Positions 4,056-37,708 are shown, numbered from the stretch's first letter. The stretch is DNA of 64,000 nt from a virus (UHGV-1455077), one strand, 5' to 3'. Numbers and translations are program-made. Notes: a model not told the origin generated them from the sequence alone.

Positions 4056-4064
4056 ATTCAAAAT

Positions 4065-4960: not shown

Positions 4961-4997
4961 AAAAAGATTTATATTAAATTTTAATGGTTCAAAGTTT

Positions 4998-6570: not shown

Positions 6571-6660
6571 AGTTGGGCATCACAAGGATGCCCTGCTTAT
6601 AGTATTAAGACCGCACAAGGCGGTCTAAAAAAGAAGGATTTGAGTTTATCACTCAAATCC
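6571..6660. promoter_or_regulatory. three consecutive hairpins between the convergent RT and target genes, immediately 3' of VR
   Basis: gggcatcacaaggatgccc (7-bp stem), agaccgcacaaggcggtct (7-bp stem), ggatttgagtttatcactcaaatcc (10-bp stem overlapping the target stop codon). Confidence 0.5.
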
Positions 6661-7728: not shown

Positions 7729-7753
7729 TCTAATACCTTTTGCTTATATCAAA

Positions 7754-7761
7754 TATTTATT
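7754..7761 (-). promoter_or_regulatory. late-promoter-like AATAAATA box upstream of the DGR target gene
   Basis: - strand ...tttcAATAAATAtttgatataagcaaaaggtattagaATG. Confidence 0.4.
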
Positions 7762-7766
7762 GAAAT

Positions 7767-7800
7767 AAAAATCCACCAGCAATATTGCTGGTGGATTTTT
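7767..7800 (-). terminator. hairpin aaaaatccaccagcaatattgctggtggattttt with flanking A/T runs (bidirectional)
   Basis: 12-bp perfect inverted repeat between 7827..8228 and the DGR target gene. Confidence 0.55.
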
Positions 7801-7826
7801 TAGTATAACAACAATGAAAAATTTTA

Positions 7827-8228
7827 TTACTTTTCTTTTTTAATCAATTCAATCGTCTGTTTACCAAGTTCAGTAATCATTGATTTAACAATATCTTCTT
7901 CGGTTTCACAACGATATTCATTATAAGAACCTTCAGCATTGTGATATTTTAAATTACAAACTATTTCTTCTAAATCTTCAGATGGCAATGTACTTTCATA
8001 AACTTCATCTGTATGTTTATCTTTAATAAAAATTGTAAGTTCATATTCATCTAAATGAGCTTCAATGATTTCAAAATCATTTGACAATTTCATAGGAAAT
8101 GTCTGCTCTACCCCATTAACTGTTTTAACTTCGGTTGAATTGCTAAAAGCAAACCAACTGACACAGCCAACCAAAAATGCAACTAAAATTGTTAAACCTA
8201 AAACCTGAATTTTTTTAATCATCTTCAT
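7827..8228 (-). CDS. putative lipoprotein
   Basis: N-terminal signal peptide with lipobox LVGC (MKMIKKIQVLGLTILVAFLVGC). Confidence 0.5.
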   Translation of the reverse strand: MKMIKKIQVLGLTILVAFLVGCVSWFAFSNSTEVKTVNGVEQTFPMKLSNDFEIIEAHLDEYELTIFIKDKHTDEVYESTLPSEDLEEIVCNLKYHNAEGSYNEYRCETEEDIVKSMITELGKQTIELIKKEK

Positions 8229-17207: not shown

Positions 17208-17940
17208 TTATTCTCTCCTTAGCGATATTAAAATAATTTTCATCTAACTCAATTCCAATGAAATTTCTGTTTAAATTTTTACAAGCTAAACCTGTTGTTC
17301 CACTTCCCATACAGAAATCTAATACTGTATCTCCTTCATTAGTATATGTCTTAATTAAATATTCCATTAATGCTAATGGTTTTTGAGTTGGATGTAAATA
17401 ACAAGTTTGTTTATCACTTTTAAAAATTAAATGATTTCTCGGAAATCTATCTGTATTACCGCCCCCTGAAATTTCTTTAGAGCAATTTCCATAAACAACA
17501 CTTTTATTAACAGTTTTTAAATATTTTGTATATGAATTTATTGGTTTATGCCCATCAGTTTTTTGAGGATTATACATACATTGCTTTTCATAAAACACTA
17601 ATATTTCTTCAATACATCTTAATGGTTGTTTTTTAGCATTAAGAAAACCTGTTGCTTGAGTTTTCTCCCAATACCATTTATACTTAAAATTATCATTTGA
17701 AGAAATTAAATATGATGCGTATGGTTCTTGTGCAAATAACAACATAGGACTTGTTTTATCTGTTAATAAATTTAAACAATTCCACATTGAAGAAATATCA
17801 ATCATTTTATCCCATTTACATTTTTTATTTAATATTTCATACGGCGGGTCAACCATAACAGCATCAACTTTAATTCCTTTATCAATAAGTTGTTGCATTA
17901 CTTCTAAACAATCGCCTTGATATAAATCAATTTGACTCAT
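17200..17940 (-). CDS. beta-class N6-adenine DNA methyltransferase, CcrM-like
   Basis: LYQGDCLEVMQQL...DAVMVDPPY (motif IV near the N-terminus). C-terminal HPTQKPLALMEYLIKTYTNEGDTVLDFCMGSGTTGLACKNLNRNFIGIELDENYFNIAKERI closely parallels the CcrM motif I/FxGxG region. Confidence 0.75.
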   Translation of the reverse strand: MSQIDLYQGDCLEVMQQLIDKGIKVDAVMVDPPYEILNKKCKWDKMIDISSMWNCLNLLTDKTSPMLLFAQEPYASYLISSNDNFKYKWYWEKTQATGFLNAKKQPLRCIEEILVFYEKQCMYNPQKTDGHKPINSYTKYLKTVNKSVVYGNCSKEISGGGNTDRFPRNHLIFKSDKQTCYLHPTQKPLALMEYLIKTYTNEGDTVLDFCMGSGTTGLACKNLNRNFIGIELDENYFNIAKERINE

Positions 17941-18857
17941 ATCATTGCTCCAAATAAAGTATTATAAGCATCATCTAATTCTTTTCTTTTTTGTTTTTCT
18001 TCTTCAGATATTTCTCTTTTAAACCATTCTTCATCAAAAGAAGTTTCCCAAGTATCCGTATCTAAATAAAACATTGGATTCCAATTATAATCTTCTCCAT
18101 ACCGAACATAACCTCGTGGATTAGAAATAACCCGACAATTTCCAATAAGATAATTATTATAATTATGAACGTGTCCGTGAACCCAACATTTAATATTTGG
18201 ATGTTGAATAATAAATCCACCTAAATTAGAAGCATAACCACAATTAACTTTACTATCTTTATAACAAGTTGCTATTGATTGATTAGATGGAGCGTGGTGA
18301 GTAACAATTATAATATCTTTTGTTGGATTTTCTTCAACAGTTTTTTTAATAAATTCAAATGATTCATTAAACATTTGAACGTGATGGTCACCATTCAATC
18401 TTACTAATTTTTCTCCATTAAAATATTTTCCAAGACGGAAATCATTCAATCCTCTTTCAATTAATGATTTACCTCTATATGTTGGAATACCATTTAAATG
18501 GCAATTAGTATATAAAGTTGACCCAATAATCATAATATTACTATCAATAAAAGTATACACATCATTATCCAGAAATCTTATTGTACAACTTTCTGGAAAA
18601 TATTGACGAAGGTCTGCTTTTAAATCTTGTACAGATAATCCATAATTATTATATACTAAATGATTGCCAGCAACTAAAATACCATAAGGACAATTATCTT
18701 TTATCCAATCTATATAATCACGATAATGACCAGCAGTATCGCCTGCAATAAGTGTAAAAGTACCTCTATCTTTATTAGGTAACATTAATGGGTAATCTTG
18801 GTTTACATCTAAATGTAAATCACTAATTATTCTTATTTTCATTAAAATAAACTCCAT
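17937..18857 (-). CDS. calcineurin-like metallophosphoesterase
   Basis: ISDLHLD, GDTAGH, AGNHL, VTHHAP metal-binding motifs. Confidence 0.6.
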   Translation of the reverse strand: MEFILMKIRIISDLHLDVNQDYPLMLPNKDRGTFTLIAGDTAGHYRDYIDWIKDNCPYGILVAGNHLVYNNYGLSVQDLKADLRQYFPESCTIRFLDNDVYTFIDSNIMIIGSTLYTNCHLNGIPTYRGKSLIERGLNDFRLGKYFNGEKLVRLNGDHHVQMFNESFEFIKKTVEENPTKDIIIVTHHAPSNQSIATCYKDSKVNCGYASNLGGFIIQHPNIKCWVHGHVHNYNNYLIGNCRVISNPRGYVRYGEDYNWNPMFYLDTDTWETSFDEEWFKREISEEEKQKRKELDDAYNTLFGAMI

Positions 18858-20714: not shown

Positions 20715-23700
20715 TTATTCCATAAATTTAATTGTTTTTTCAATAAAATCTATTTCTTTCTGATTTAAATTATATTTTTCATATAATTCTTTATCTGTCC
20801 AAGATTTAGAAAAATCAAGCCAAGGTACAAACTGAAAATTATTTGTAGAAATATTCATTCCTGATAACGTTTGTAAAATTAAAAATCTGACAAATTTTGT
20901 TCTTAAATATGTATATATATTCTCTGTTTCTTGATATGTATCAGTAGGACAAATAATTAAATATGATTGATTGCATATTTGATTGGGTTTTAAAATTTCC
21001 ATTCTGCTTAAAACTCTATACATACTATTTCTATCAGGATTACCTGCGTGTTCACAAGATAATTTTGAAATTAAAACTTTAAATTTGTTAATAAAATTTT
21101 TACCTTTCTGTATTTTATTTTTTTCAACATAACCCCAACCAGAGCTACTTAAAATTTCACAATCATCTGGTAATACTTTATCTTCTGTTCCTTTAAATGT
21201 TGATAAAAATCCAAAAGGAGTTTGAGGACTGCAACCACCGTCTTTTGATAAAAAAGAATTACTTTTTGAAACAACTTTATGAACAATAGATAACGCTTCA
21301 TTACGGCGGATTAATATATTAAATTCATTCAATTTTCGAGTAGTTTTTTGTACACCATCTTTTATGACACTAGAAAATTCACATAAACCATTATATTTAC
21401 TATCCCTTAAAAAATAACATATTCCGCCATTGATGTCAACATTAGGAAAGCAAATTTTAGAATCTATAAAATCAACAATATTTTTGATTCTTGTATCAGA
21501 TAGCATTTTTTTTCGAAAATCATTTAATCCTACACCACCAGAAAACCAACGAGCAGGAATAATCATTATTAAATATCTTGGGTTCAATTTTATGGCGTGT
21601 TCAACGAACTTATTATAAAGAGGGATAGCTCCTAATCCTTTGCCTTGTTCATTAACTTGTAATTGATATGGTGGATTTGTAATAATGGTAGTAAAATCTG
21701 TTTTATCCCAATAATCAAATGTTAACGCATCACCATTATGTAAATGTGATTTGATAACTGTTAAAAATTTATCTTCATCAAAATTAACATTATTTTTCTG
21801 ATAAATTTTTCTAACCATATTACACATATTAGCCAGAGTTAAAATATAATTCTTTTCTTGTAATTCAACCCCATAAAGTTGATTAGTTATGATATGATTT
21901 ACACGCTCTATTTCATTAGGAATTTTATTTTCTAATGATTTCATTATTCGTTCAAGCAATAATTGTAAAAATATTCCACTACCACAACACGGTTCAAGAT
22001 ATGTTGAATTTTCATTTTCTAAACAATCTTGTGGTATTAAATCAATCATATTATTTGCTAACCATTCAGGTGTAAACACTTCTCCAAATTCTTTAATAGC
22101 ATTGTTTTCCATTATAATCCTTTTTAAAGCATAGTATTCTTGTGTTCCCCACGTTTTTACTAATGCATTATTTATATGATTTAATTTATTTATAAATTCA
22201 GTTGAATCTATAATTTTATCAATGTTATTAATAATATCTGAAAAACTTTCACTATTTTTATATGATTCTTTTGGAAACCAAACATTATATAATAATTTAT
22301 TATTAAATGGCTGATTTAAAAAATCATTTATACCTGTTACAATCCCTTTTTCTTGAACCAATAAAAGGTCATCAATATTCATAGTAATTAAAATCATAGA
22401 ACAATATGATAAAAGCATATCAAGTAACTTTTTAGCTTGCTCAATATCTTTTTCTGTTAAAATTCTATTTTCATTTGAAACTTCAATAGACTTATCTTGT
22501 CTATTATTATTTTCAATACTAATAACATCAATGCCGTTAGTATACTTTATTTTTGGTTCAAATACATTATTATTTTTCTTTTTAGTAAAAAATTCAAATG
22601 TAAAGTCTTTTAAACTTCCAAATTGTTTAAATACTATGTCATTTGTTAATGAATCAAACAAGTGTTGAATACATTTCGGGCTATAATATGCATCCATCAT
22701 TTGATTAATAAGTTTTGTTTCATCAATCATATTAATTTCTTGATACTGAATTTCCATACAAGTTGAAAGCAAATATTTTAATTCTCTATTATTTTTTGTA
22801 AAATTTCCATTACCATTTGAAGCAATAGATATATTCGCCATTTGAAGAAATCTTTCTTTTAATGGGTCAATAAAAAAAGTAATATGCTGATATTTTCCAT
22901 CATTGTTTTTAAATGCTTGGCGAACTCTCCCCATACATTGCATATAGTTTGAAAATGATTTTGAATCATTCATCATAATAATAGCGTGATTTTTTTTAAT
23001 AGTTGTTCCAATTGTGCATTGTTTTACTGTACAGAAAAATTTTATTCTTCCATTAAAACAATCAAAAAAATTATTAACTCTATCAATTGCTTTTAAATCA
23101 ATTTGATTACTTAATTCTTCCATTATATCTTTATTTGTACAAGAAAAATCAACATCAACACCATAATTTTCTAATTTTTGCAAGCATTTAACAATTAATG
23201 CTAATTCTTCACAATTATTACAAATCATTTGAATATTGGTTGGATATTGAATTGATGGCTCATCATTAAAAATCGTTTTATTATTAAAATGATTACGAAT
23301 AATTTTTTTAAAACCATCAATTTTAATACCTTTCTTTAATGTATTAATTAAAGAAGTTAAAGTTTTTTCAAGATGGATAGGATTTGCAACCATTTCAGAA
23401 ATTGAATTATATTGAACATCAATAGCATTTGTTTCTGGTTGAAACAAACAAGAAATAACTGTTGGATTATTGTAATAATCCATATTACCATTACAAATAT
23501 CATTCAATCTATCAATTTCATCAAACATATAACCATTTTTACCATATAATGAATTTGTATATGGTGTTGCCGAACATAAAATTAATTTACAATCTTTTGG
23601 TAATAAATTAATAATTTTTTGTTGTTTTTCTGAACCATAAGCCAAATGAGCTTCATCATAAACAAATAAATTTGTTTGTTCATAGATTGTTTTAGCTTGT

Positions 23701-24743
23701 GCTTTAATTGATGAATTATAGCTATATTGAACTGACAAAAATACAACATTTAATTTATCTAAACATAATTTAATTTTTTTATCTAAGTTAGTACAAATAT
23801 TAATTTTATCAGGAGAAAAAATCTTTCTAAAATCTTCAATTACACCATTATAAATTTCAGGAATAAAACATTGATAAACTATTGTTTTTCCTTTATAGTT
23901 TTCACCAAAATATCTTTTAATAATTTCTGCACAGATAATTGTTTTTCCTGAACGACAAGGCATATTTAATAACACACTTTTATTACCATTTTGTAAAAGT
24001 TTTAAAATAGTTGTTACGGCTTCTTCTTGTCTTAATCTTAATTTAATAGGTGAATTATTTATGTATATAGTATTGAATACTTTTTCAACATCTCCATATT
24101 CATCAATTATTTTTTGAGCTTTAACATAATACATATTAAAGTCAATAAGTTTAATTGATGAATTATATATTTCATTTTTTGTAATATATTGCTTATTAAT
24201 TTTTCTCATATCTAAAAATACAATAGATAAATCAAAAACATCATTTGTTTCGATACAAGATTTCATTAACTCTAAAATATTAATAGGTAATGATGTAAAA
24301 ATAAGTCCGTGTCTTGTAACATTTAATACATTAGAATATTTTTTCAATTCAGCAGAAATTTCACTATGAGTTACAGAAAGTGTGGATTTACTTTTGCTTA
24401 AAATATTAATTTTTGATGAACCAATGTACCACTCATTTTCAATTAAAAATGATATATCACCATTATGACTACCTGAACAAGGTATTGGTTTATAAATTTT
24501 TTCAATCTTTCCATTAGTTGTAATGGTTTTGATATTTTTATGATTAATTGTAAACACATCTTTAAAAAGTTTCTCAAAAAATTTTCCTGCCAAACCTTTA
24601 TTAGAATTGTATTTACATAATTCTTCAATAATATCAATTAATGTATATAAGTCATTTTTTAAAATAAGTTGAATTAATTTATATTGTGTTGTTTCATCTG
24701 TATTTTTTTTGATATATTGTTTTATATCATTAATAGTTAACAT
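20715..24743 (-). CDS. SF2 helicase / gamma-class N6-adenine methyltransferase fusion protein (Type ISP-like single-polypeptide restriction-modification enzyme, or DarB-like anti-restriction methyltransferase-helicase)
   Basis: 1342 aa. Walker A LLNMPCRSGKT, motif II LFVYDEAHLA (DEAH), motif III CSATP, motif VI QCMGRVRQ. Methyltransferase motif X GEVFTPEWL, motif I YLEPCCGSGIFL, motif IV IITNPPYQ. About 170-aa N-terminal and about 250-aa C-terminal domains unassigned. Confidence 0.7.
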   Translation of the reverse strand: MLTINDIKQYIKKNTDETTQYKLIQLILKNDLYTLIDIIEELCKYNSNKGLAGKFFEKLFKDVFTINHKNIKTITTNGKIEKIYKPIPCSGSHNGDISFLIENEWYIGSSKINILSKSKSTLSVTHSEISAELKKYSNVLNVTRHGLIFTSLPINILELMKSCIETNDVFDLSIVFLDMRKINKQYITKNEIYNSSIKLIDFNMYYVKAQKIIDEYGDVEKVFNTIYINNSPIKLRLRQEEAVTTILKLLQNGNKSVLLNMPCRSGKTIICAEIIKRYFGENYKGKTIVYQCFIPEIYNGVIEDFRKIFSPDKINICTNLDKKIKLCLDKLNVVFLSVQYSYNSSIKAQAKTIYEQTNLFVYDEAHLAYGSEKQQKIINLLPKDCKLILCSATPYTNSLYGKNGYMFDEIDRLNDICNGNMDYYNNPTVISCLFQPETNAIDVQYNSISEMVANPIHLEKTLTSLINTLKKGIKIDGFKKIIRNHFNNKTIFNDEPSIQYPTNIQMICNNCEELALIVKCLQKLENYGVDVDFSCTNKDIMEELSNQIDLKAIDRVNNFFDCFNGRIKFFCTVKQCTIGTTIKKNHAIIMMNDSKSFSNYMQCMGRVRQAFKNNDGKYQHITFFIDPLKERFLQMANISIASNGNGNFTKNNRELKYLLSTCMEIQYQEINMIDETKLINQMMDAYYSPKCIQHLFDSLTNDIVFKQFGSLKDFTFEFFTKKKNNNVFEPKIKYTNGIDVISIENNNRQDKSIEVSNENRILTEKDIEQAKKLLDMLLSYCSMILITMNIDDLLLVQEKGIVTGINDFLNQPFNNKLLYNVWFPKESYKNSESFSDIINNIDKIIDSTEFINKLNHINNALVKTWGTQEYYALKRIIMENNAIKEFGEVFTPEWLANNMIDLIPQDCLENENSTYLEPCCGSGIFLQLLLERIMKSLENKIPNEIERVNHIITNQLYGVELQEKNYILTLANMCNMVRKIYQKNNVNFDEDKFLTVIKSHLHNGDALTFDYWDKTDFTTIITNPPYQLQVNEQGKGLGAIPLYNKFVEHAIKLNPRYLIMIIPARWFSGGVGLNDFRKKMLSDTRIKNIVDFIDSKICFPNVDINGGICYFLRDSKYNGLCEFSSVIKDGVQKTTRKLNEFNILIRRNEALSIVHKVVSKSNSFLSKDGGCSPQTPFGFLSTFKGTEDKVLPDDCEILSSSGWGYVEKNKIQKGKNFINKFKVLISKLSCEHAGNPDRNSMYRVLSRMEILKPNQICNQSYLIICPTDTYQETENIYTYLRTKFVRFLILQTLSGMNISTNNFQFVPWLDFSKSWTDKELYEKYNLNQKEIDFIEKTIKFME

Positions 24744-24858: not shown

Positions 24859-24945
24859 TGGTGGGCTTGGTGGGACTCGAACCCACAAGAGAATACTCCC
24901 GACAGATTTTAAGTCTGTTGCGTATACCAATTCCGCCACAAGCCC
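24859..24945 (-). tRNA. tRNA-Leu (anticodon TAA), class II, CCA encoded
   Basis: GGGCTTGTGGCGGAATTGGTA...ACAGA-CTTAAAA-TCTGT, long variable arm, GGGTTCGAGTCCCAC, CCAAGCCCACCA. Confidence 0.7.
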
Positions 24946-24957
24946 AATGTTTATTAT

Positions 24958-25045
24958 TGGTGGGCATACCGAGAGTCGAACTCGGATGGAGATTACCCCC
25001 GTCAGATTTTAAGTCTGATGCGTCTACCAATTCCGCCATACGCCC
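24958..25045 (-). tRNA. tRNA-Leu (anticodon TAA), second copy with divergent sequence, class II, CCA encoded
   Basis: GGGCGTATGGCGGAATTGGTAGACGCATCAGA-CTTAAAA-TCTGA, long variable arm, GAGTTCGACTCTCGGTATGCCCACCA. Confidence 0.65.
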
Positions 25046-25097
25046 AATTATTTTTTATGAATATATTTATATCATTTATTTTAAATAATGTCAACAA

Positions 25098-25349
25098 TTA
25101 TTTTTTACTATTTGCTAATTTATTTAAAAATTTCATCAATTGTTTTTTATCACAATCTAACAAATCATCAATATTTTTATAACCCATATGATTTAATAAA
25201 TCGTGATAACATCCTTCACAAACTTCAATACCAAAAAGATTAAACATATTTTCGTCATCATCTTCTGGACATAAAAAACATTTTCCAGTTTTATTTAAAT
25301 CATCTTTTTCATATGCAGTCTTTTTAAATTTATTTAAAAAATTAAACAT
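25098..25349 (-). CDS. small zinc-ribbon-like protein
   Basis: CFLCP...CEGCYHD Cys4-like pattern. Confidence 0.4.
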   Translation of the reverse strand: MFNFLNKFKKTAYEKDDLNKTGKCFLCPEDDDENMFNLFGIEVCEGCYHDLLNHMGYKNIDDLLDCDKKQLMKFLNKLANSKK

Positions 25350-25395
25350 TAATTTCTCCTAATTATATAAAAATCTCCATAATTTGTATATGGAG

Positions 25396-25432
25396 ATTAT
25401 ATTATAAATTATTAATTGTCAATATATTATTT
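25396..25432 (-). promoter_or_regulatory. sigma70-like early promoter
   Basis: - strand TTGACAattaataatttataaTATAAT immediately downstream of the tRNA-Cys 3' end. Confidence 0.35.
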
Positions 25433-25519
25433 TGGAAGTCTGGACGAGATTCGAACTCGCATCATCTTTTCAGATATACGGTTTTGCAGACCGCTGTATA
25501 GCCATTCTACCACCAGACT
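25433..25519 (-). tRNA. tRNA with GCA (Cys) anticodon, U73 discriminator and an unusually long (~17-nt) variable arm; CCA encoded
   Basis: AGTCTGG/CCAGACT acceptor. Anticodon stem GCGGT/ACCGT, loop CTGCAAA. Variable arm ATATCTGAAAAGATGAT. T-arm GCGAG-TTCGAAT-CTCGT. 3' TCCA. Confidence 0.5.
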
Positions 25520-25526
25520 TATAAAA

Positions 25527-25601
25527 TGGTACGGTAAGTGGGAATCGAACCCACATATTTAGCTTGGAAGGCTAACGTAATAGCCATTATACCATTACCG
25601 C
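25527..25601 (-). tRNA. tRNA-Gly (anticodon TCC), CCA encoded
   Basis: GCGGTAA...TTAGC-CTTCCAA-GCTAA...GTGGG-TTCGATT-CCCAC-TTACCGT-A-CCA. Confidence 0.6.
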
Positions 25602-25603
25602 AT

Positions 25604-25678
25604 TGGAGCGACTTGCGAGAATCGAACTCGCATCTAAACCTTGGCAAGGTCTTGTATTAACCATTATACGAAAGTCGC
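25604..25678 (-). tRNA. tRNA-Gly (anticodon GCC), CCA encoded
   Basis: GCGACTT...AGACC-TTGCCAA-GGTTT...GCGAG-TTCGATT-CTCGC-AAGTCGC-T-CCA; U8, A14, GG18-19, U33, A37 all present. Confidence 0.65.
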
Positions 25679-25689
25679 ATATATGAAGG

Positions 25690-25985
25690 TTCTTTTCACT
25701 CCGATTAAAAGAACCTACAACTTAACCTAACGGTTGGATAACCTTTATTAACGTATGCTATTTATCCAACAAGTATTCACATACAAAGGTTAGCTTAATG
25801 ATTACATACTACTTTATCGTCTATGTTACAGCCTTGGGCAAGGTTAGGTCAACTGTGTCTTACTGTTTCTGTCTTTCGGTTATCACGACTTACCTAAGAA
25901 AATTCCTATTAGCCTTTTGGATGGTTGCCCCTATCATTCGTGTGTTAGATTTATGTATGTAATCTCCCAAACATAGAATGGGAAA
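25690..25985 (-). ncRNA. ORF-free, hairpin-rich, relatively GC-rich ~300-nt segment inside the tRNA cluster; candidate structured RNA of unknown class
   Basis: No ORF on either strand. GC clearly above flanks. Stems ggttcttttaatcggagtgaaaagaacc (9 bp), ttggataa...ttatccaa (8 bp), ccttgcccaagg, tccca...tggga. Sits between tRNA-Trp and tRNA-Gly on the same strand. Confidence 0.3.
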
Positions 25986-25987
25986 CT

Positions 25988-26061
25988 TGGCAAGGGCAAA
26001 TTGATTTGAACAATTACTGCAAATTTTGGAGATTTGAGTGCTACCGTTACACTATACCCTT
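25988..26061 (-). tRNA. tRNA-Trp (anticodon CCA), CCA encoded
   Basis: AAGGGTA/TGCCCTT acceptor (one G-U). D-arm GTGTAACGGTAGCAC. Anticodon stem CAAAT/ATTTG, loop CTCCAAA as in E. coli tRNA-Trp. T-arm AATTG-TTCAAAT-CAATT. 3' GCCA. Confidence 0.6.
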
Positions 26062-26492
26062 ATTTTATTTATATTTATACTTAATAGATAATTTTTATAA
26101 TAATTATCTTTGTTTGTATTATCATATCTTAATGTTATAGATGTTCTATTAATAAAATCATTTGGTTCAAAAATAAAAACATCAGATGTTATATTATTAA
26201 CACAAAACAAATAATCTATTTCTCCATTTTGATAAGTTTTATAAATCCATTTACCTTGAATTAATCGTGTTGTTTTTAAATTAAATACAATTTTTTCTCC
26301 ATCAAATGTATTGGAAGATTTAACTTGTATTTTATATAATTTACCATTTCCACCATTAGATACAATAATAAAATCATACATTCTGTTATTCATTAAAGAT
26401 TTACATACATCAATATTATTTTTTATTAATTCAGTTGCTACAATCATTTCTCCAATATCACCATTATAGCAATTATTATCATATTTAAACAT
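26052..26492 (-). CDS. PD-(D/E)xK nuclease-like protein (start probably downstream of the annotated one, since it overlaps tRNA-Trp)
   Basis: GDIGEMIVATEL...YDFIIVSNGGNGKLYKIQVKSS fits the D...(E/Q)xK nuclease core. Confidence 0.35.
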   Translation of the reverse strand: MFKYDNNCYNGDIGEMIVATELIKNNIDVCKSLMNNRMYDFIIVSNGGNGKLYKIQVKSSNTFDGEKIVFNLKTTRLIQGKWIYKTYQNGEIDYLFCVNNITSDVFIFEPNDFINRTSITLRYDNTNKDNYYKNYLLSININKIRV

Positions 26493-26598
26493 TAATTATC
26501 CTTAATTGATGATTTTTACTTATTTAAATTAAAAATATTTTTTATAATTTATTAAATATTTTATAATATATAAATTAATGTCCTTCTTTTTATACATA

Positions 26599-27141
26599 TC
26601 ATTTTTCTGTTATAATATCAATATATTTTTTATTAACTTTTTTAACAAGCCAAACATTATTATCTGATAAAAAGAAATCAATATTATCTGCAAACATTTG
26701 TTTTGTATTTATTGATAAAATAATGGTTTTTCCTTTTCTTCTATCACCAACTTTTTTAGCTGTTTCAATATCTTTTGATAAATGAACATATTGTCGTTCC
26801 ATTGGCAATAGTCCTTTTTTCATTATAGATGAAAGATATTCTTCTTTTGTTCCGTGATATAAAATAACAGGTGGAATCTCTTTTTTAAAAGTTATATTAA
26901 CTTTGTTTGTTGTATGTCCTTGATTAGCTCTGATTTTCTTTCCATCTTCAGAAATAGAAAATCTTTGTTTATCATTAGTATTAACGACTTCTTTAATAAT
27001 ATTGTAAGATAATTCCATATTTGAATTATCAATAATATATTGTATGTCTGCCCATCCTTCTTTATCTAATTTTAAATTAATATTTTCAGGTTTATGACGT
27101 AAAATATAACTTAGATATTTACTAATTTCAATATTATTCAT
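26599..27141 (-). CDS. kptA: RNA 2'-phosphotransferase Tpt1/KptA family
   Basis: SKYLSYILRHKPENINLKLDKEGWADI, IRANQGHT, ILYHGT, VHLS signature blocks of Tpt1/KptA. Confidence 0.7.
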   Translation of the reverse strand: MNNIEISKYLSYILRHKPENINLKLDKEGWADIQYIIDNSNMELSYNIIKEVVNTNDKQRFSISEDGKKIRANQGHTTNKVNITFKKEIPPVILYHGTKEEYLSSIMKKGLLPMERQYVHLSKDIETAKKVGDRRKGKTIILSINTKQMFADNIDFFLSDNNVWLVKKVNKKYIDIITEK

Positions 27142-27463
27142 ATTTAATCCTTAAAAATAATGAGTGATTCCTAAATAAATTTAGGATTAAATCTGTCACT
27201 CGCAGATTATAAAAATTAATTTACACCAATCATTTTTCTATATTCAACGACTTCTCCATTTTCTGGAATAACTGATGGCATTTCATTATAAGAAGTTGCT
27301 TCAAGCAAAGGCCCAAAATTTTTAGTATTTTCTGACCAATACTGTGCATAATCAACACCAGTTCTTTTAATAACATAAATATGTTCTGGTCTAACCCATT
27401 CGTTACCTTTTCCAATTTCACTAAACAATTTTTCTTTTACTTCTTCTGACATTTTTTCCTCTC

Positions 27464-27700
27464 TTATTTTGATACTTTAATAGTTTCTTTTAAAAAGCTT
27501 GTTACAAATCCCAAAAATGCTCCGACTTGAAACATTGTAACATTTGTAATTCCCATTTGAGCTAAAATTCCAAGAATTGTATCTTCAAATACAAAACCAA
27601 CAATCCACCCTGCAACTCCGCCAAAAAATGCTGATGCAATACACGAAATTACAATTAAAAACGGAGTTAAAATTGTTAATAACATAAACATTTTACTCAT
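27464..27700 (-). CDS. small membrane protein (two predicted TM helices)
   Basis: Hydrophobic 78-aa ORF. Confidence 0.4.
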   Translation of the reverse strand: MSKMFMLLTILTPFLIVISCIASAFFGGVAGWIVGFVFEDTILGILAQMGITNVTMFQVGAFLGFVTSFLKETIKVSK

Positions 27701-28178
27701 ATCTTTTATCCTTCTCTGTTACGACAAATGAAGTTGCTGTTTCAGAAATAATTTTGTCAGTTTCCTCTACAACAAATCCATTGAATTTAATATTATACTT
27801 AGTTCTACCTTTTTTAAAAATACTATTCTTTTTAAATGTTTTTGTGATAGAAACTACTTCATCTTTATACTTGTAATTTTCAATCAAGTCAAGCAATTTT
27901 TTAAATTTTGGATTAGAATTTAATTCATCTTCACTAAATTTAATTTCTGTTATATTTTCAAGAATAGAATAAGCAAAATCATATCCTGTAATTATATTAC
28001 ACTTATTCCCTTTAAAATAAAAAACAGGTGATTCTTTATCAGTTGGAATATGAACAGTATCTGTTTTATAAACTTCATATCTCCATCCAATTTTTGAATA
28101 AAAATTATGAATATTATCACTCCAAATTACTTCATATGAAGGAGTTTTTGCTTCACAATCTTTAATTATCCAAGCCAC
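27693..28178 (-). CDS. hypothetical protein
   Basis: 161-aa ORF. Confidence 0.4.
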   Translation of the reverse strand: MAWIIKDCEAKTPSYEVIWSDNIHNFYSKIGWRYEVYKTDTVHIPTDKESPVFYFKGNKCNIITGYDFAYSILENITEIKFSEDELNSNPKFKKLLDLIENYKYKDEVVSITKTFKKNSIFKKGRTKYNIKFNGFVVEETDKIISETATSFVVTEKDKRYE

Positions 28179-28181
28179 TAT

Positions 28182-28475
28182 TTATTCTCCCAAATCATTA
28201 AAAGTTAAAACACGATTGATATATCTTTCCAAAGGAACATATGAACCATCTTTCATTTGAATTAAACATTCCGAAAAGATAGGACGTTTTGTATTTTTTT
28301 CATAAGTATAACCAGTATAAGCACACGACACTTTATCAGCCATAAAATTACCAAAACCCCAAAGACAGAAGATTCCCAAAACAATTAATAAAGTGATTTT
28401 AAAATCTCTTTTGGTGTAAGAATCATCTTCATCATAATCTTCCAAATTTTCATCTCTTTTAAACCATTTAAACAT
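28182..28475 (-). CDS. small membrane protein
   Basis: TM helix ITLLIVLGIFCLWGFGNFMA. Confidence 0.4.
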   Translation of the reverse strand: MFKWFKRDENLEDYDEDDSYTKRDFKITLLIVLGIFCLWGFGNFMADKVSCAYTGYTYEKNTKRPIFSECLIQMKDGSYVPLERYINRVLTFNDLGE

Positions 28476-28477
28476 TT

Positions 28478-28864
28478 TTAGTTTCCTTTCTTTTTAGCAT
28501 ATTTCATAAAATTACTGAACATTTCATTTTCTTTTCCATTATGAAAAGTTTTACATATAGAATCAACCAAATAAGGAGCTTTCATACCATATATAACTTC
28601 TTTTATTGAACTTAATGTTTCTGGCATTCCACAAATTAAAATGCTTGGAATAAACATAATAACCATAAATGGAAACATTAACCACGAATAATATGTCTTA
28701 ATAGTTAAATATTTCTCATCTTCATCAAGATAATATTTAAACCTTTTCAACCCATATCTAAAATTCATCGTTGGACACAAACCAAACACTTTTTTATGAT
28801 TTCTTTTTGAAATTATATATTCTTTTATCATTTCAATCTCTCTTTTACTATTATTTTGCATCAA
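28478..28864 (-). CDS. membrane protein
   Basis: TM segment WLMFPFMVIMFIPSILICGM. Confidence 0.4.
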   Translation of the reverse strand: MMQNNSKREIEMIKEYIISKRNHKKVFGLCPTMNFRYGLKRFKYYLDEDEKYLTIKTYYSWLMFPFMVIMFIPSILICGMPETLSSIKEVIYGMKAPYLVDSICKTFHNGKENEMFSNFMKYAKKKGN

Positions 28865-29072
28865 AAGTAAAATAGTTTTTAAGAGTAAAACCTTTTAAAA
28901 TTGGCATATAATAACCATTAGCACCAGTATTTTTTACTCTGTATGTATTTCCAGAAGCATCTTTCATCCAAATACTTTTTTCAGTTACTTTAGTAACAGT
29001 TCTAGTATCTAATACGCTATTAGACCAATCGTGGTATCTTGAAAATGTATCTCCAACTTTAACTTCAGCCAT
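28851..29072 (-). CDS. hypothetical protein; start revised to the internal ATG (MAEVKVG...) because a promoter motif occupies 29112-29147
   Basis: The ORF-track start is GTG at 29150, overlapping the TTGACA/TATATT promoter motif. ATG 26 codons downstream has better context. Confidence 0.35.
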   Translation of the reverse strand: MAEVKVGDTFSRYHDWSNSVLDTRTVTKVTEKSIWMKDASGNTYRVKNTGANGYYMPILKGFTLKNYFTFDAK

Positions 29073-29111
29073 TTTAAAATTCCTTTCATTAAAAACCATT
29101 ATCATCATTTG

Positions 29112-29147
29112 ATAATGGTAATATAACATAGAAAAAATACTTGTCAA
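29112..29147 (-). promoter_or_regulatory. sigma70-like early promoter (member of the conserved ~40-bp intergenic motif)
   Basis: - strand TTGACAagtattttttctatgTTATATTaccattatcaaa; near-identical copy at 33556-33597. Confidence 0.4.
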
Positions 29148-29154
29148 CACATTT

Positions 29155-29604
29155 TTACATAATTTCTAATTTTTCTTTAATTTCTTCCCACGACCAAGGT
29201 TCATAATTATGCGTATCAACCCCAACATCCATACATTTAGTATTTTGATGTGGCATTAATTTTGTAAATTCAGCTAAATTAAATTTTCCGTGGGTATGAC
29301 CATATAAATGAATTGATTGATGCCACGCACAATCCCATTCCGCAATTGGATAATGTGATAAAATAACTCTTTTATCTTCAATTGTAATTCTTTTATAAGG
29401 TACAATTTCTGCCCATACATTTGATTTTTGATGAGGTGTTAGTTTATCGTGATTACCAATTATTAAATATTTAATTCCATTCATTTTAGAAAATGTTTGT
29501 TGAATTTGATTTGAATTCCAACCCCAACAAACATCTCCTAAAACATATACGACATCATTTATATCAATTTTTTTATTCCAACGTTTAATAATTTCTTCAT
29601 TCAT
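29155..29604 (-). CDS. small metallophosphoesterase (Ser/Thr phosphatase-like)
   Basis: YVLGDV, IIGNHD, GHTHG motifs. Confidence 0.55.
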   Translation of the reverse strand: MNEEIIKRWNKKIDINDVVYVLGDVCWGWNSNQIQQTFSKMNGIKYLIIGNHDKLTPHQKSNVWAEIVPYKRITIEDKRVILSHYPIAEWDCAWHQSIHLYGHTHGKFNLAEFTKLMPHQNTKCMDVGVDTHNYEPWSWEEIKEKLEIM

Positions 29605-29777
29605 TTGCTGAACGGATGAAAATGGTCTATTTGAATGTTTAATTGAATTAGTATGGTCTAAATGGAGTCAAAGGTCCGAAGTAAAAAAATACTTCGGACA
29701 TCTACTCCTTTCTATATTTGTTAATCCATCTTTTACCATTTTTATAATCCTCTATTAATTTAATAACTAAATCTTGT

Positions 29778-30584
29778 TCATACCATTCTTTTTTTATAAT
29801 TGATGATTTTATTAAATAATTCCTCTAATGTCAAGTGATTTCCATCAATATATTTTTGTCTTTTTTTCATTATATTATCTCTATTTGTTAATATTTGACA
29901 ATTACAAGGATGTCTTAATATTTCAGGAAAAACACCATTTTCAAAGCCACTTCTTCTACTATACATATGGTCTCTAACAACACCTTTTGGATTTGTAATA
30001 GAATTAAATACATTATAGTCAGTTAATAATTTTAATTGATTTTCATCATCAATTAAATTAAACATATTTTGTTTCCAATTTGCTTCTTTATAATAAATTT
30101 CTTTATCAGCTTTATTTTCTAATGGTATCCAATAACCCAGCGTTTCATACTGCTTTCTCATTCGTTCTTTATATTCAGTAGTAAATTTTTTCTTAGATTT
30201 TTCTCCAATAATTTTTTTAGATTTTTCTGAAAGTTTTTTTCCATACATTGTTGGCTTATGTGTTTTGTAATATTCTTTTAACTTTTTACTTGTTTCAAAT
30301 AATTTTTTACCTTTATTAACTGCACATAATTCTTTTAGTTCTGGTCTTTTAATATATCTCTGTTTTACAATTTCTGATACTTTTTGTTTTGTTTTTTCAT
30401 CCCATTTATTACCATAATTAGGATTGTTTTCTCCTAACATAGAAGTTTTCATATACTCATAAAAACATTTTTTACAACAAAAAACAGCATTTTCATTTCT
30501 AACTGTTGATGGAAATCTAAAAAATGGTTTCTTGCAATTAGAACATATATAATTAGGTTCTTTAATACTTTTCTTTCTACCCAT
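29778..30584 (-). CDS. HNH homing endonuclease with NUMOD3 DNA-binding repeats and N-terminal zinc finger
   Basis: C-terminal VRDHMYSRRSGFENG...NCQILTNRDN (HNH). Repeated YGxKxSEKSK NUMOD3-like motifs. CSNC...CCKKC. Flanked by direct repeats atggtctaaatg at 29653 and 30621. Confidence 0.6.
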   Translation of the reverse strand: MGRKKSIKEPNYICSNCKKPFFRFPSTVRNENAVFCCKKCFYEYMKTSMLGENNPNYGNKWDEKTKQKVSEIVKQRYIKRPELKELCAVNKGKKLFETSKKLKEYYKTHKPTMYGKKLSEKSKKIIGEKSKKKFTTEYKERMRKQYETLGYWIPLENKADKEIYYKEANWKQNMFNLIDDENQLKLLTDYNVFNSITNPKGVVRDHMYSRRSGFENGVFPEILRHPCNCQILTNRDNIMKKRQKYIDGNHLTLEELFNKIINYKKRMV

Positions 30585-30657
30585 ATATTTCTCCTTTTAT
30601 TATATGAGTATTTATTGATTTAATGGTCTAAATGTAAATCGCTTGTAAACCAAATCA

Positions 30658-30951
30658 TTATTTAATCCTATAAATCGTTTTAATTACATTATAGTAATCA
30701 TCAAATGAACAATTTTTCATCAAAAGAATTTCAGTAACTGAACCTGATGCAGGAAAATGTTCAACAACGGAAATTTCTTTTTCATCATCATTGATAAAAA
30801 GTTGTATTCCATTGACATTAACTTCAATATAATTTTCATATACATTTGCATCTTTATTGAGCCAATATTTCAATATTCTTCCATTATTTTTAATAATCAT
30901 TGGCTCAATAATAGTATCTACAAAATCCATAAAATCTTTAAATTCAACCAT
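30658..30951 (-). CDS. hypothetical protein
   Basis: 97-aa ORF. Confidence 0.4.
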   Translation of the reverse strand: MVEFKDFMDFVDTIIEPMIIKNNGRILKYWLNKDANVYENYIEVNVNGIQLFINDDEKEISVVEHFPASGSVTEILLMKNCSFDDYYNVIKTIYRIK

Positions 30952-31760
30952 TATTCAACTCCATACATAATTGGTTCAGCATCATAAAAGTATGTTTCAA
31001 CTTTATTTTCAACTTTTTTCATTATAGGAAGTTGCATTTCTTGAACTTCACTACGGACTACTATACCATTTTCAGGACGTTTATCCAAAGGTATTTTTGA
31101 TAAAGTTTCTTCATCAAGAACTTTATTTACATTTACTCTTTTAAAATAAGAACCTCGTTTTAAATATGGTTTTATATCATTAAAATTTATGCCTTTTTCT
31201 TGAAACAGCATTTCATTCATTTCAGCAGTTGATTTACCTTGAAGTTCTTTATGACTAAAATTAGCTTGTGCAACCATTGATACTGCATTTCTTGCGGCAT
31301 CATTTTCTCTCCAAACAAAAGCATTTGCTAATTCTACCATATTTGGCAATTGAAAAACCCTGCAATCAAAGTTTGGTTTAAGATTTTCAACTTTTTCTGT
31401 AAGTTTTGGATATTTCATACAATTCAAAACAAAAGATACTGTTGCCATTGATGCCAAGACAGAAGTTAATTTAAACAGTCTACCATCAAATGGTGCTTTA
31501 CTCATATCTTCCCAAGCCAAAGAAATTTCATCAGATTGAACATAACCAAGTTTGGCATTAGTTTGTTTAACTAAATCTTTACAAACTTCTCTCATAACCG
31601 CAACAAATTCCATATCAAATGGTTTATCCAAACCACGACAAAAAGTATGAAATGCACGCCCATCTAATCTAACATATACAGGCAATCTTGGCATTAACAT
31701 TGTTGAAGTTGTCAATGCTTCATAAGTTTTCATTCTATCGCCTAAATTATCATTACTCAT
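30951..31760 (-). CDS. Thg1-like protein (tRNA-His guanylyltransferase family / 3'-5' polymerase, tRNA 5'-end repair)
   Basis: MKTYEALTTS...LPVYVRLDGRAFHTFCRGLDKPFDMEFVAVMREVCKDLV follows the Thg1/TLP N-terminal catalytic pattern (...VRIDGRGFHKF...KPND...). Confidence 0.5.
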   Translation of the reverse strand: MSNDNLGDRMKTYEALTTSTMLMPRLPVYVRLDGRAFHTFCRGLDKPFDMEFVAVMREVCKDLVKQTNAKLGYVQSDEISLAWEDMSKAPFDGRLFKLTSVLASMATVSFVLNCMKYPKLTEKVENLKPNFDCRVFQLPNMVELANAFVWRENDAARNAVSMVAQANFSHKELQGKSTAEMNEMLFQEKGINFNDIKPYLKRGSYFKRVNVNKVLDEETLSKIPLDKRPENGIVVRSEVQEMQLPIMKKVENKVETYFYDAEPIMYGVE

Positions 31761-31772
31761 TTATATTCTCCT

Positions 31773-32618
31773 TTAAATTCTTTCCTTATATTCTATATTA
31801 ATTAAAGTATTTGTCAAGAACATATTTGGATAATTATTTGGTACATTCCAACAATGACGGTCTGGAGTACAATATTTTTTACCAAAACATTTAACCCTTC
31901 TTCTTTCCAAATTTTCAAATTTTTTAATCTTCGGATTATATTTTTTAATAAACATAAAATCTTCCCAATTTTCTTCTTGTTCTAATTTTACTTTACCAAA
32001 AAATTCATATCCATTAGAAGTTTGAAGCCAACAAATTTTTTCATCTCCATCATTCATTTCAACAGGAAAATATTGTTTATAATTTTCTTCAATTGTTCTT
32101 AATCGTTTCATAAATGAATGAAAAGATTCATTAATTAGATATGTACAATTATCAAAAGTATTTAAAACTAAAAATTGTTGTTTTGGTATTCCATTATGAG
32201 GAATAGTTGGTATATGTATTCTTTCAATATCTGAATCTGCTACATAATCAAATAATTTATTATATCCAATACCAATAAACAATATATTCATTAAATTAAC
32301 TGTATGAATTTCATTATCTATACCAATAAATTTAATATCTAATGCATTATCATAAAAAATATGCCAGCTTTTTTCTATTGGTTTTTCTTTAGGTATTAAT
32401 TTATTTTTTGAAATATAATCATTTTCATTTATTGTTTTTAATGATTTAAAAACAAATGAATTTGTTTCAGAATTATATATTTGACAATAAGATTTTCTTT
32501 CTTCCATAAAAGAAGATTTCATTTCTTTAATATCATTTTTAATATTTTTTATTTCTTTATTAATATGTGATGTAATAATTTTCTTTGATTTATAATTTCC
32601 TATTTTTTTATTTTTCAA
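31773..32618 (-). CDS. hypothetical protein
   Basis: 281-aa ORF. Confidence 0.4.
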   Translation of the reverse strand: MKNKKIGNYKSKKIITSHINKEIKNIKNDIKEMKSSFMEERKSYCQIYNSETNSFVFKSLKTINENDYISKNKLIPKEKPIEKSWHIFYDNALDIKFIGIDNEIHTVNLMNILFIGIGYNKLFDYVADSDIERIHIPTIPHNGIPKQQFLVLNTFDNCTYLINESFHSFMKRLRTIEENYKQYFPVEMNDGDEKICWLQTSNGYEFFGKVKLEQEENWEDFMFIKKYNPKIKKFENLERRRVKCFGKKYCTPDRHCWNVPNNYPNMFLTNTLINIEYKERI

Positions 32619-37099: not shown

Positions 37100-37708
37100 T
37101 TAATTTAAATCAATACCTAATTCTTTTGCTTTATTAATCATCTGTACTCTATTAAAACAATTCATTCTTTTTAGTATATTTGTTATATGAACTTTAACCG
37201 TGGATTCAGATATATTTAATTCATAAGCAATTTGTTTATTTGATAATCCTTTATTAATCAACTTAATAACATCTATCTGCTTATTTGTAACAATATTATT
37301 AAATGATTTCATTATTAAGTTATTAGGAAAATAATTTTCATTTAACATAATTAAGTTTATTATATTGAAAATTTTATCATTTGAATACTTTTTAGAAATA
37401 TAACCAGCAACATTAAACGCCATATATGTTTTAACATCTGATGAAATATATTCTGATGTAAAAATAACAATTTTTGATTTCGTATTACTATTTGTAATAG
37501 TTTTAATAAGAGATTGCATATCTATTTTGTTAGTTTTTGTAATAAAAATTAAATCATACATATTAAAATCAACATTATTTTTAACTGCCAAATAATCACA
37601 GTACGCATCAACATCACATTCAATATTAAATCTTTTTAATAATTCTTTTAGTCCAGTAACATATAGTTCCTCATCATCTAAAGTTAGTATTTTCATTCTT
37701 AACCTCAC
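37100..37708 (-). CDS. NarL/FixJ-family response regulator (receiver domain plus LuxR-type HTH), orphan
   Basis: KILTLDDEELYVTGLKELL (acidic pocket), YDLIFI (phospho-Asp position), GYISK (conserved Lys). C-terminal LSNKQIAYELNISESTVKVHITNILKRM LuxR HTH. Confidence 0.65.
   Translation of the reverse strand: MRLRMKILTLDDEELYVTGLKELLKRFNIECDVDAYCDYLAVKNNVDFNMYDLIFITKTNKIDMQSLIKTITNSNTKSKIVIFTSEYISSDVKTYMAFNVAGYISKKYSNDKIFNIINLIMLNENYFPNNLIMKSFNNIVTNKQIDVIKLINKGLSNKQIAYELNISESTVKVHITNILKRMNCFNRVQMINKAKELGIDLN

Follow-up and report, generated by a model that had tools for sequence, protein, structure and literature searches.

A Thg1-like protein and a Tpt1 phosphotransferase beside the tRNA array of a T4-like phage: candidate tRNA-maintenance enzymes

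Background

Does a group of genes next to the tRNA array of a large phage serve to repair tRNA ends, and if so, which of these genes take part? The question is raised by a 64,000-nucleotide stretch of viral DNA (UHGV-1455077; the whole stretch is called the window below, and positions are counted from its first letter). A first-pass annotation had described here a four-part RNA end-healing module, consisting of a PD-(D/E)xK nuclease-like open reading frame (ORF), an RNA 2'-phosphotransferase (Tpt1/KptA), a small metallophosphoesterase (MPE) and a Thg1-like 3'-5' nucleotidyltransferase. Our analysis indicates that the Thg1-like protein (TLP) and Tpt1 are both functional, constrained genes, and on balance we favour the view that they are tRNA-maintenance enzymes, expressed early together with the phage tRNAs, which would keep the tRNA pool usable. 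By the same sequence comparisons, half of the proposed four-part module would be a selfish endonuclease and a gene disrupted by one.

The Thg1-like protein and Tpt1

The two genes that carry the argument are the following.

30951-31760, minus strand: TLP, 269 amino acids (aa), predicted templated 3'-5' RNA polymerase of the bacterial TLP type
26599-27141, minus strand: Tpt1/KptA, 180 aa, NAD+-dependent RNA 2'-phosphotransferase family; the final protein ORF ahead of the tRNA array (the endonuclease aside)

Profile searches upheld the assignment of the first gene to the Thg1 family: it matches PF04446 at 4e-31 with 108 bits (cut-off 29.2), PF14413 (Thg1C) with 29.3 bits (cut-off 26.3) and phrog_4717 at 8e-82. 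Its active site is intact: 16 diverse phage TLPs all keep the metal-binding palm carboxylates D33, D77 and E78, which correspond to the RxDG and SDE motifs in 4kgk and 3wbz. Among solved structures the closest is the Bacillus thuringiensis TLP (4kgk; 1.3e-41 over residues 4-204 of 269), whereas Thg1 proteins match worse, from 3e-18 (Candida Thg1) to 1e-13. The Thg1-specific HINNLYN anticodon-recognition segment is absent as well: the window protein reads WRENDAARNAV where Candida Thg1 has WRQVDCHINNLYN. Because of these two observations we assign the window homologue to the bacterial-type TLPs and not to the true tRNA-His guanylyltransferases. In vitro, bacterial and archaeal TLPs prefer 5'-truncated tRNAs, which are repaired by templated 3'-5' addition, and the physiological substrates of the bacterial enzymes are an acknowledged open question (PMC6471195). 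An apparent set of three TLPs in locus L019 turned out to be a pattern-matching artefact.

The Tpt1/KptA assignment was borne out too. PF01885 is matched over residues 3-167 of 180 at 1.6e-49 (168.8 bits, cut-off 26) and phrog_5470 at 7e-63; the score against NCBIfam NF002014 (227.2 bits) lies slightly below the cut-off of 239. Alignments with the Tpt1 proteins of Runella slithyformis (7kw8, 7e-44) and Clostridium thermocellum (6e3a, 3e-35) run from end to end. R15, H16, R60 and R116 align to the catalytic Arg-His-Arg-Arg tetrad of the Runella enzyme (R16-H17-R64-R119), and all four are invariant in an alignment of five diverse phage Tpt1s. Tpt1 moves an internal RNA 2'-phosphate to NAD+; the enzymes of C. 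thermocellum and A. pernix also strip terminal 2'/3'-phosphates, which those of Runella and human cannot, and the role of Tpt1 in organisms without a fungal-type tRNA ligase is an open question (PMC6573784).

Relative to the related loci L001 and L128, the ratio of nonsynonymous to synonymous substitution rates (dN/dS) is 0.07-0.12 for TLP and 0.14-0.17 for Tpt1. The proteins of L001 are 95% (TLP) and 81% (Tpt1) identical to those of the window, and those of L128 about 88-89% and 84-85%. It is this strong purifying selection, together with the complete catalytic residues, that leads us to regard both genes as functional.

Organization of the locus

All four named ORFs lie at the positions first given for them and on the minus strand. 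They had been described as downstream of the tRNA cluster; on this strand they are transcriptionally upstream of it. The remaining features of the locus, apart from those of the endonuclease genes and MPE, are as follows.

31790-31817, minus strand: sigma-70-like promoter, near-consensus TTGACA-N16-TAGAAT, lying some 30 nt ahead of the start codon of TLP
30658-30951, minus strand: ORF of 97 aa without Pfam match, overlapping the stop of TLP at its own start and the start of MPE at its own stop
29095-29147, minus strand: promoter-like site (TTGACA-N16-TATATT with upstream TG) and hairpin directly after the MPE stop, at the start of the next transcription unit
27216-29072, minus strand: six small ORFs of about 73, 117, 97, 161, 78 and 78 aa without Pfam or PHROG matches
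24859-26061, minus strand: tRNA array with Trp(CCA), Gly(GCC), Gly(UCC), Cys(GCA) and two Leu(UAA), following Tpt1 on the same strand

The first unit is compact, running from a promoter-like site through TLP and the 97-aa ORF to MPE with overlapping stop and start codons; MPE, translationally coupled to TLP in this manner, is a candidate phosphate-end-healing partner. The second unit comprises a promoter-like site, the six small ORFs and Tpt1, followed by the genes for tRNA-Trp, Gly, Gly, Cys, Leu and Leu (six of the eight tRNA genes in the window). No terminator was detected between the Tpt1 unit and the tRNA array, and in the endonuclease-free allele of strain L046 tRNA-Trp begins 23 nt past the Tpt1 stop codon. 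Four sigma-70-type sites that agree with the consensus at 11 or more of 12 positions fall between 24700 and 34000, none of them on the non-coding strand; a first-order Markov model predicts 0.66 +/- 0.79 such sites (P about 0.003). These promoter-like sites would place TLP and Tpt1 in two adjacent, separate early-type transcription units.

Gene content around the two enzymes is variable. The 97-aa ORF occurs in the species of the window phage but not in L001, and strains differ in whether they have two endonuclease genes, a 281-aa ORF and a 1342-aa restriction-modification-like gene. All six small ORFs are conserved in L001 and its companion L002 (40-84% identity); at least two of them look membrane-spanning when the sequence is judged by eye.

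The tRNA-Cys(GCA) gene of the array (25433-25519, minus strand) is of a type, 87-89 nt in length, whose variable arm is long and class-II-like; A1 pairs with U72, and the discriminator base is U73. This tRNA-Cys is conserved in all close relatives (L001 14941-15027, L046 14814-14900, L128 2129-2217), and the more distant phage L003 has an ordinary one of 76 nt.

Comparative neighbourhoods

We compared the surroundings of TLP (26 IMG/VR loci, neighbours within 5 kb) and of Tpt1 (80 IMG/VR loci, about 35 lineages); all associations given below are counts within these sets of loci. TLP is accompanied by a CCA-adding enzyme (PolyA_pol + HD) in six loci, by a 237-aa metallophosphoesterase in five and by RlaP, a nucleotidyltransferase of RNA repair, in four, while a phrog_547-type MPE stands beside TLP also in L027 and in the window lineage. 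tRNA genes occur within 10 kb of TLP in 10 of 24 loci. For Tpt1 the recurrent neighbours, counted by lineage, are YqeY (7), Macro (5, representing 39 loci; an assignment that rests on PDB 5m31), RlaP (4), an isochorismatase/nicotinamidase-like protein (4), SLOG (4) and TLP (4). The four lineages with TLP amount to three independent cases: the window lineage, L050 (a 416-kb contig) and L126. In the unrelated contigs L050 and L126 the two genes are 1.2-1.6 kb apart, and in L126 both stand inside an array of nine tRNAs.

Tpt1 is also found repeatedly right next to tRNA genes. The nearest one is 2 nt away in L097 (after an array of 32 tRNAs), 23 nt in L126, as in L046, and 35 nt in L128; by lineage, a tRNA gene lies within 1 kb of Tpt1 in 7 of 35 cases and within 10 kb in 12 of 35. 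In L128 the order is Tpt1, tRNA-Trp ... YqeY, tRNA-His, tRNA-Leu ... TLP, and a phosphoesterase is missing; both genes have kept their link to the tRNA array, but not to one another. This relative of the window phage (CASEYV010000001.1, 283,511 bp) was submitted as an 'uncultured bacterium' bin, and a GTDB-based collection uses it as the genome of a species; to all appearances a phage genome has here been entered as a bacterial metagenome-assembled genome.

Many isolated phages carry annotated TLP or Tpt1 homologues. The closest are about 45% identical for either protein (among the matches listed), and a megablast search of 26000-32000 against isolated phages returned no DNA-level match. Around Tpt1 in the isolated phages phiCD211, KpLz-2_45 and pEa_SNUABM_30, almost every gene is annotated as 'hypothetical protein'.

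Two further observations concern these neighbourhoods. A YqeY-like protein (PF09424, GatB/YqeY) is the commonest conserved neighbour of phage Tpt1 (L095, L096, L097, L101, L106, L121 and L127), and in L128 YqeY occupies 7566-8018, immediately ahead of tRNA-His; the Tpt1-YqeY pairing was not found in the portions of two surveys of jumbo phages available to us (PMC7824862, PMC9503650). Secondly, predicted suppressor-type tRNAs with the anticodons UUA, UCA and CUA are found in L126 (10857-10929), L097 (4428-4503) and L021 (17158-17233), which suggests stop-codon reassignment or suppression in these phages.

Proposed function

In the reading we favour, TLP would refill tRNAs with a shortened 5' acceptor strand by 3'-to-5' addition templated by the 3' strand, as the biochemistry of the family suggests. 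Tpt1 would pass an RNA 2'-phosphate to NAD+ (an internal one or, as in some family members, a terminal 2'/3'-phosphate) and thereby clear a phosphate that blocks tRNA function or later end processing. Together with the phage tRNAs, the enzymes could keep the tRNA pool usable under damage by host nucleases or stress responses. The tRNA-end role proposed by the first-pass annotation is plausible in this form, with Tpt1 abutting tRNA arrays here and in several unrelated phages and TLP found near a CCA-adding enzyme, RlaP and MPE; the four-part module is not retained. That bacterial immunity can target acceptor ends is illustrated by Cas12a3, which cuts the CCA tails of tRNAs (PMC12851939). A defence that shortens tRNA 5' ends was not found in the literature searched.

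A number of observations weigh against tRNA maintenance by this pair. Concerning the enzymes, the nearest solved relative of the window Tpt1, that of Runella, cannot remove terminal phosphates (PMC6573784), and no enzyme that makes 2'-phosphates (2H/LigT, or a Trl1/yeast-type ligase) was found by Pfam scans of the window, which covered about 86 ORFs of at least 55 aa across 64 kb. For phage TLPs and Tpt1s, the literature searched describes neither an activity nor a substrate nor a phenotype. Concerning the substrates, each of the six clustered tRNAs encodes its CCA and has a 7-bp acceptor stem free of mismatches, so that none of them needs 5' repair; a requirement of the phage's own tRNAs for 5' editing was ruled out on this ground. 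Concerning the genes, the promoter-like sites separate the units, and the four genes therefore do not form one operon: six ORFs and at least one promoter-like site lie between TLP/MPE and Tpt1. MPE is disrupted in five of the six strains shown and is therefore no obligatory partner. In L128 the tRNA array lies between TLP and Tpt1, which are 9 kb from each other. There is no Tpt1 within 10 kb of TLP in 24 other phage TLP lineages (0/24), nor in 79 cellular TLP loci (0/79), where the sole match is L128, the phage relative. Going by organism tallies and the 40 matches listed for either gene, the sets of isolated phages with TLP and with Tpt1 seem to overlap little. Finally, the excess of tRNA genes within 1 kb of Tpt1 is modest (20%, against 13% in random segments of the same loci).

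Alternative explanations

The alternative that survives best is that TLP and Tpt1 are independent accessory genes in a hypervariable, endonuclease-rich region by the tRNA array, without a joint pathway. We consider this possible, though on the whole unlikely. Several of the points above speak for it: the separate promoter-like units, the broken gene order and linkage in L128, the small overlap between isolated-phage records (among the matches listed) and the strain-dependent gene content of the region; moreover, each gene is without the other at the majority of its loci. Against this stand two unrelated lineages in which TLP and Tpt1, both of them rare in phages, are less than 2 kb apart, and the recurrence of RlaP and tRNA arrays beside each of them.

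A second possibility is break-and-seal repair of anticodon-loop breaks, with an Rnl1, Rnl2 or RtcB ligase encoded in the remaining ~205 kb of the genome. A 2H enzyme would leave a 2'-phosphate for Tpt1 to remove, a phosphoesterase would assist, and TLP would restore lost 5' nucleotides. To the extent that the available portions of PMC7824862 and PMC9503650 show, this is the published model for jumbo-phage KptA, and RNA ligases are described there as common in such phages. The first-pass annotation had recognized no RNA ligase in the window, and our scans agree: among the ~86 ORFs there is no RNA ligase, polynucleotide kinase-phosphatase, RtcB, 2H/LigT, Macro or CCA-adding family. Precomputed annotation of flanks of about 20 kb likewise contains no RNA ligase, which brings the inspected part to ~84 of ~289 kb; this is about 29% of the genome, a share that leaves room for the model. 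No ligase, kinase, 2H or Macro was seen in window or flanks. Neither is there a ligase among the Pfam-scanned neighbours in L050, L126 and L128, or in the gene families that recur most often beside phage TLP and Tpt1, a minority of ORFs being profiled in both cases. The RNA-repair neighbours of TLP (CCA-adding enzyme, RlaP) are enzymes that rebuild ends and not ligases. Taken together, we judge break-and-seal repair to be rather unlikely for this locus.

A more specific form of tRNA-end repair has TLP, Tpt1 and the intact MPE acting as a ligase-independent route for acceptor ends that is transcriptionally wired to the tRNA array. Tpt1 and/or MPE would strip blocking 2'/3'-phosphates, TLP would rebuild the 5' acceptor strand from the 3' template, and the 3' tail would be rebuilt by the CCA-adding enzyme of the host or, in other phages, by an adjacent phage one. 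This we regard as doubtful. If true, such a route would counter defences that attack tRNA ends instead of anticodon loops (compare Cas12a3), and it would be the first physiological role for bacterial-type TLPs and for Tpt1 without a fungal-type tRNA ligase.

Tpt1 might also be an ADP-ribosyltransferase, one that caps RNA ends bearing a 5'-phosphate or works on NADP(H) or ADP-ribose metabolites, in order to redirect host RNA metabolism or interfere with NAD-based defences. By the available portions of PMC10622864 and PMC9458441, Tpt1 enzymes do ADP-ribosylate 5'-phosphate ends and use NADP(H) in vitro, and the phage Tpt1 neighbours Macro, isochorismatase (nicotinamidase-like), Nudix and SLOG point to NAD/ADP-ribose chemistry. 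None of these partners was found in the window, however; the consistent neighbour here is the tRNA array, and the complete phosphotransferase tetrad is kept. A role of this kind is very unlikely in our estimation.

Still more improbable is that TLP is a tRNA-His maturation enzyme, adding G-1 opposite C73 to the tRNA-His of phage or host without any repair. Some TLPs do so in vitro (PMC6471195), and a tRNA-His gene is located 1.5 kb from TLP in L128 and 0.8 kb in L126. The window protein, however, is of the TLP type without HINNLYN, and none of the window tRNAs is tRNA-His. The tRNA-His of L128 encodes G-1 opposite C73, the bacterial arrangement, and needs no addition, which makes maturation roles unlikely.

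Tpt1 and TLP as tRNA-maintenance enzymes is the reading we favour; what remains to be accounted for are the two other members of the proposed module.

The endonuclease genes and the metallophosphoesterase

26052-26492, minus strand: PDDEXK_5 nuclease, 146 aa; the last 10 nt overlap tRNA-Trp
30620-30658, minus strand: MPE 5' fragment, 12 codons MIWFTSDLHLDH (30658-30623) with metal motif I (DxH, SDLHLDH), followed by a TAA stop made by the insertion
29155-29664, minus strand: MPE 3' part with motifs II-V; the ATG-defined ORF is 29155-29604
29653-30622, minus strand: mobile cassette of 970 bp in the MPE gene, with a NUMOD3 endonuclease ORF at 29778-30584

For the PD-(D/E)xK ORF both the nuclease family and the coordinates stood up (PF11645 at 7.7e-14, 52.3 bits, cut-off 26.1), whereas its membership of a repair module did not, the gene being mobile and polymorphic between strains. 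It is present in strains L041-L045 and missing in L046, with an identical TLP in all six, and in L001 the site is taken by a different, zinc-finger endonuclease-like ORF. A homologue in the unrelated phage L126 (5664-6290) is fused to NUMOD1 and lies between tRNA genes. Compared with L046 (14274-14347), the tRNA-Trp of the window (25988-26061, minus strand) differs at numerous positions, with changes in the acceptor, anticodon and T stems, and has an identical downstream flank, a pattern which suggests that the nuclease gene travels with a cleavage-resistant tRNA-Trp variant. Because of its presence or absence at a fixed site, the divergence of the flanking tRNA-Trp and the NUMOD1-fused homologue, we take the ORF to be a selfish, free-standing gene of the homing-endonuclease type and no repair component. 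A phmmer search of its protein against PDB sequences gave nothing meaningful and no direct match to I-Ssp6803I, an endonuclease that lies in a tRNA intron and presumably falls within PF11645.

The small metallophosphoesterase proposed at 29155-29604 is correct as to family and coordinates, and is only the 3' piece of a 177-codon gene that a cassette has split and probably inactivated. The piece matches PF00149 (1e-4, 23.1 bits, cut-off 21.5) and phrog_547 (7e-35) at profile positions 58-199 only. Uninterrupted genes of 177 aa are found in L001 and L002 and in strain L046, the TLP of which is identical to that of the window; the alleles of L046 and L001 read through the insertion site as ...HLDHTNSI.... 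When rejoined, the 177-aa protein matches aq_1665 (1xm7) from residue 1 (5e-11), and its five motifs (DxH, GDxxD, GNH[D/E], H, GHxH), contained in one polypeptide in L046 and L001, are split across two pieces in the window.

Comparison of the interrupted and intact alleles defines an insert of 969/970 bp, which the first-pass annotation had left unmentioned, with a 12-bp target duplication CATTTAGACCAT at 30634-30623 and 29664-29653. Insertions of homing endonuclease genes or introns do not usually carry such a duplication. Five of the six strains shown (L041-L046) have the cassette, which L046, L001 and L002 lack. It has its own Shine-Dalgarno sequence and a 10-bp terminal hairpin at 29699-29674, and its ORF matches NUMOD3 (PF07460, 3e-5) and phrog_23051; in the window one extra A in an A-run shortens this ORF to 268 aa, against 293 aa in other strains. 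Within the 3' end of the ORF is a near-consensus, outward-facing promoter-like site (29834-29806). From these features we conclude that the insert is a free-standing, selfish homing-endonuclease cassette that splits MPE after codon 12. The split MPE is probably inactive in the window genome and, being so, dispensable.

That the insert is instead removed as RNA by an unrecognized self-splicing element, so that the enzyme is still made and TLP and MPE form a functional pair, is the least probable of the alternatives considered. The spliced product would read ...HLDH|TNSI..., with the nucleotide junction ...CATTTAGACCAT|ACTAATTC.... Like many phage introns the insert stands inside a coding region at a conserved catalytic motif, and its presence in most sampled strains is easier to explain if it is harmless. 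On the other hand, an Rfam search of 29500-30750 with E-values up to 10 returned noise and no intron family of either group I or group II, just ~150 nt of the insert are non-coding, and the ribosome-binding site and terminal hairpin of the cassette are those of a free-standing gene. Moreover, the 12-bp duplication makes it impossible to satisfy the group I rule, which asks for a U ahead of the 5' splice site and a G as the final intron base: in any boundary register the last exon base equals the last insert base, except for one register giving A and C. Ribosomal bypassing across the 12-bp repeats, by analogy to T4 gene 60, was rejected since the gap is 970 nt as compared to ~50 nt in gene 60.

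The phage and its genome

The window, with a GC content of 25.7%, comes from a T4-like phage of roughly 290 kb (25.6% GC). The replication genes in it are of the T4 type (clamp loader, DnaB-like helicase, primase-like Toprim, dNMP kinase), and it is flanked by T4-like head genes (gp23, prohead protease, portal) on one side and by tail-fibre genes on the other. An identical TLP protein is indexed in 237 blocks of an assembly collection, on contigs of 272-291 kb (most of them 286-291 kb) with sample names that resemble human-gut cohorts. The phage thus appears to be common in metagenome assemblies, from the human gut judging by the sample names.

Several other genes in the window deserve mention. 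The phage encodes GroEL (Cpn60; 43146-44780, minus strand), GroES (Cpn10) and a GreA/GreB homologue (about 62010-62489), as well as a protein with an Rv2179c-like 3'-5' exoribonuclease domain (63205-63711) and a second metallophosphoesterase of 306 aa (17937-18857). A response regulator (37100-37708, minus strand) combines a receiver domain with a LuxR/GerE helix-turn-helix; by strain its called length is 154, 178, 198 or 202 aa, one domain being absent in some versions. At 20715-24743 (minus strand) a 1342-aa protein joins a ResIII/DEAD helicase to an Eco57I-type N6-adenine methylase and resembles single-polypeptide restriction-modification enzymes; it has no homologue in the 20-kb loci of L001 and L002, and in strain L041 it is split into ORFs of 589 and 754 aa. 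A diversity-generating retroelement (4157-7728) comprises a reverse transcriptase (5239-6570, plus strand) and an Mtd-like target protein (6649-7728, minus strand), adjoined by a GIY-YIG/NUMOD3 SegE-like endonuclease gene (4157-4960) and with tail-fibre genes adjacent. Finally, a permuted (two-piece) tmRNA gene is located at 3761-4099 (minus strand), where Rfam tmRNA_permuted (87.5 bits) and alpha_tmRNA (77.9 bits) both exceed their gathering scores and ARAGORN does not call the gene; in a phage of 25.7% GC, apparently from the gut, it might also hint at the host.

Comparison with known systems

The locus does not represent a new kind of system, because KptA and Thg1 were already predicted for large phages. 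In the portions available to us, the catalogues of Iyer, Anantharaman, Krishnan, Burroughs and Aravind (2021, PMC7824862) and of Iyer et al. (2022, PMC9503650) list both as predicted jumbo-phage RNA-repair enzymes, next to tRNAs, ligases, RlaP, CCA-adding enzymes and calcineurin-like phosphatases. The predicted repertoire resembles that of the window in its KptA, Thg1, calcineurin-like phosphoesterases and tRNA genes, with countering host tRNA attack as the proposed role. In these surveys, as far as the same portions go, KptA works with 2H, Macro and RNA ligases and Thg1 is sporadic, whereas here none of the 2H, Macro or ligase partners was found nearby and the tRNA array is the consistent partner; the juxtaposition of TLP and Tpt1 in three independent lineages was not found there. 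What is new is the removal of two false components, the strain-level endonuclease polymorphisms and the recurrent juxtapositions of Tpt1 with tRNA arrays and of TLP with Tpt1. Comparative placement in this way adds testable structure to a prediction that so far rested on gene catalogues. A widespread phage that keeps both genes, tied to its tRNA array, offers a concrete system for testing tRNA-end repair during infection.

Individual components can be compared with characterized proteins. The B. thuringiensis TLP (4kgk) shares with the window TLP the RxDG/SDE catalytic motifs and a TLP-type WR(Q/E)xDAxxN segment; the window TLP differs in being phage-encoded and in the coupling of its gene to a metallophosphoesterase gene. 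The sole proven physiological function of a TLP is mitochondrial tRNA 5'-editing by Dictyostelium DdiTLP3, which rebuilds the first nucleotides of the acceptor stem (PMC6471195), whereas the six clustered window tRNAs show no acceptor-stem mismatches that need editing. The Tpt1 proteins of Runella and C. thermocellum align over the full length and share the Arg-His-Arg-Arg tetrad. In contrast to the canonical Tpt1 setting, no fungal-type ligase that makes a 2'-PO4 junction was found in the window, and unlike in known Tpt1s the gene is fixed on the 5' side of a tRNA array. The PDDEXK_5 ORF resembles I-Ssp6803I-type and free-standing phage homing genes in that it is small, strain-mobile, placed on a tRNA gene and provided with a NUMOD1-bearing homologue; I-Ssp6803I is itself a PD-(D/E)xK homing endonuclease (PMC3384342), but unlike it the window gene is free-standing and not intron-encoded.

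The T4 pair Pnkp and Rnl1, which counters PrrC, is likewise a phage answer to tRNA damage that joins end-healing to supplementary tRNAs. A counter-defence distinct from this pathway, as the first-pass annotation suggested for the locus, is a conjecture with ~84 of ~289 kb covered. No kinase-phosphatase or ligase of this sort occurs in the 84 kb inspected here, and the end chemistries differ from those met by T4, as TLP and Tpt1 would address 5' recession and the 2'-phosphate.

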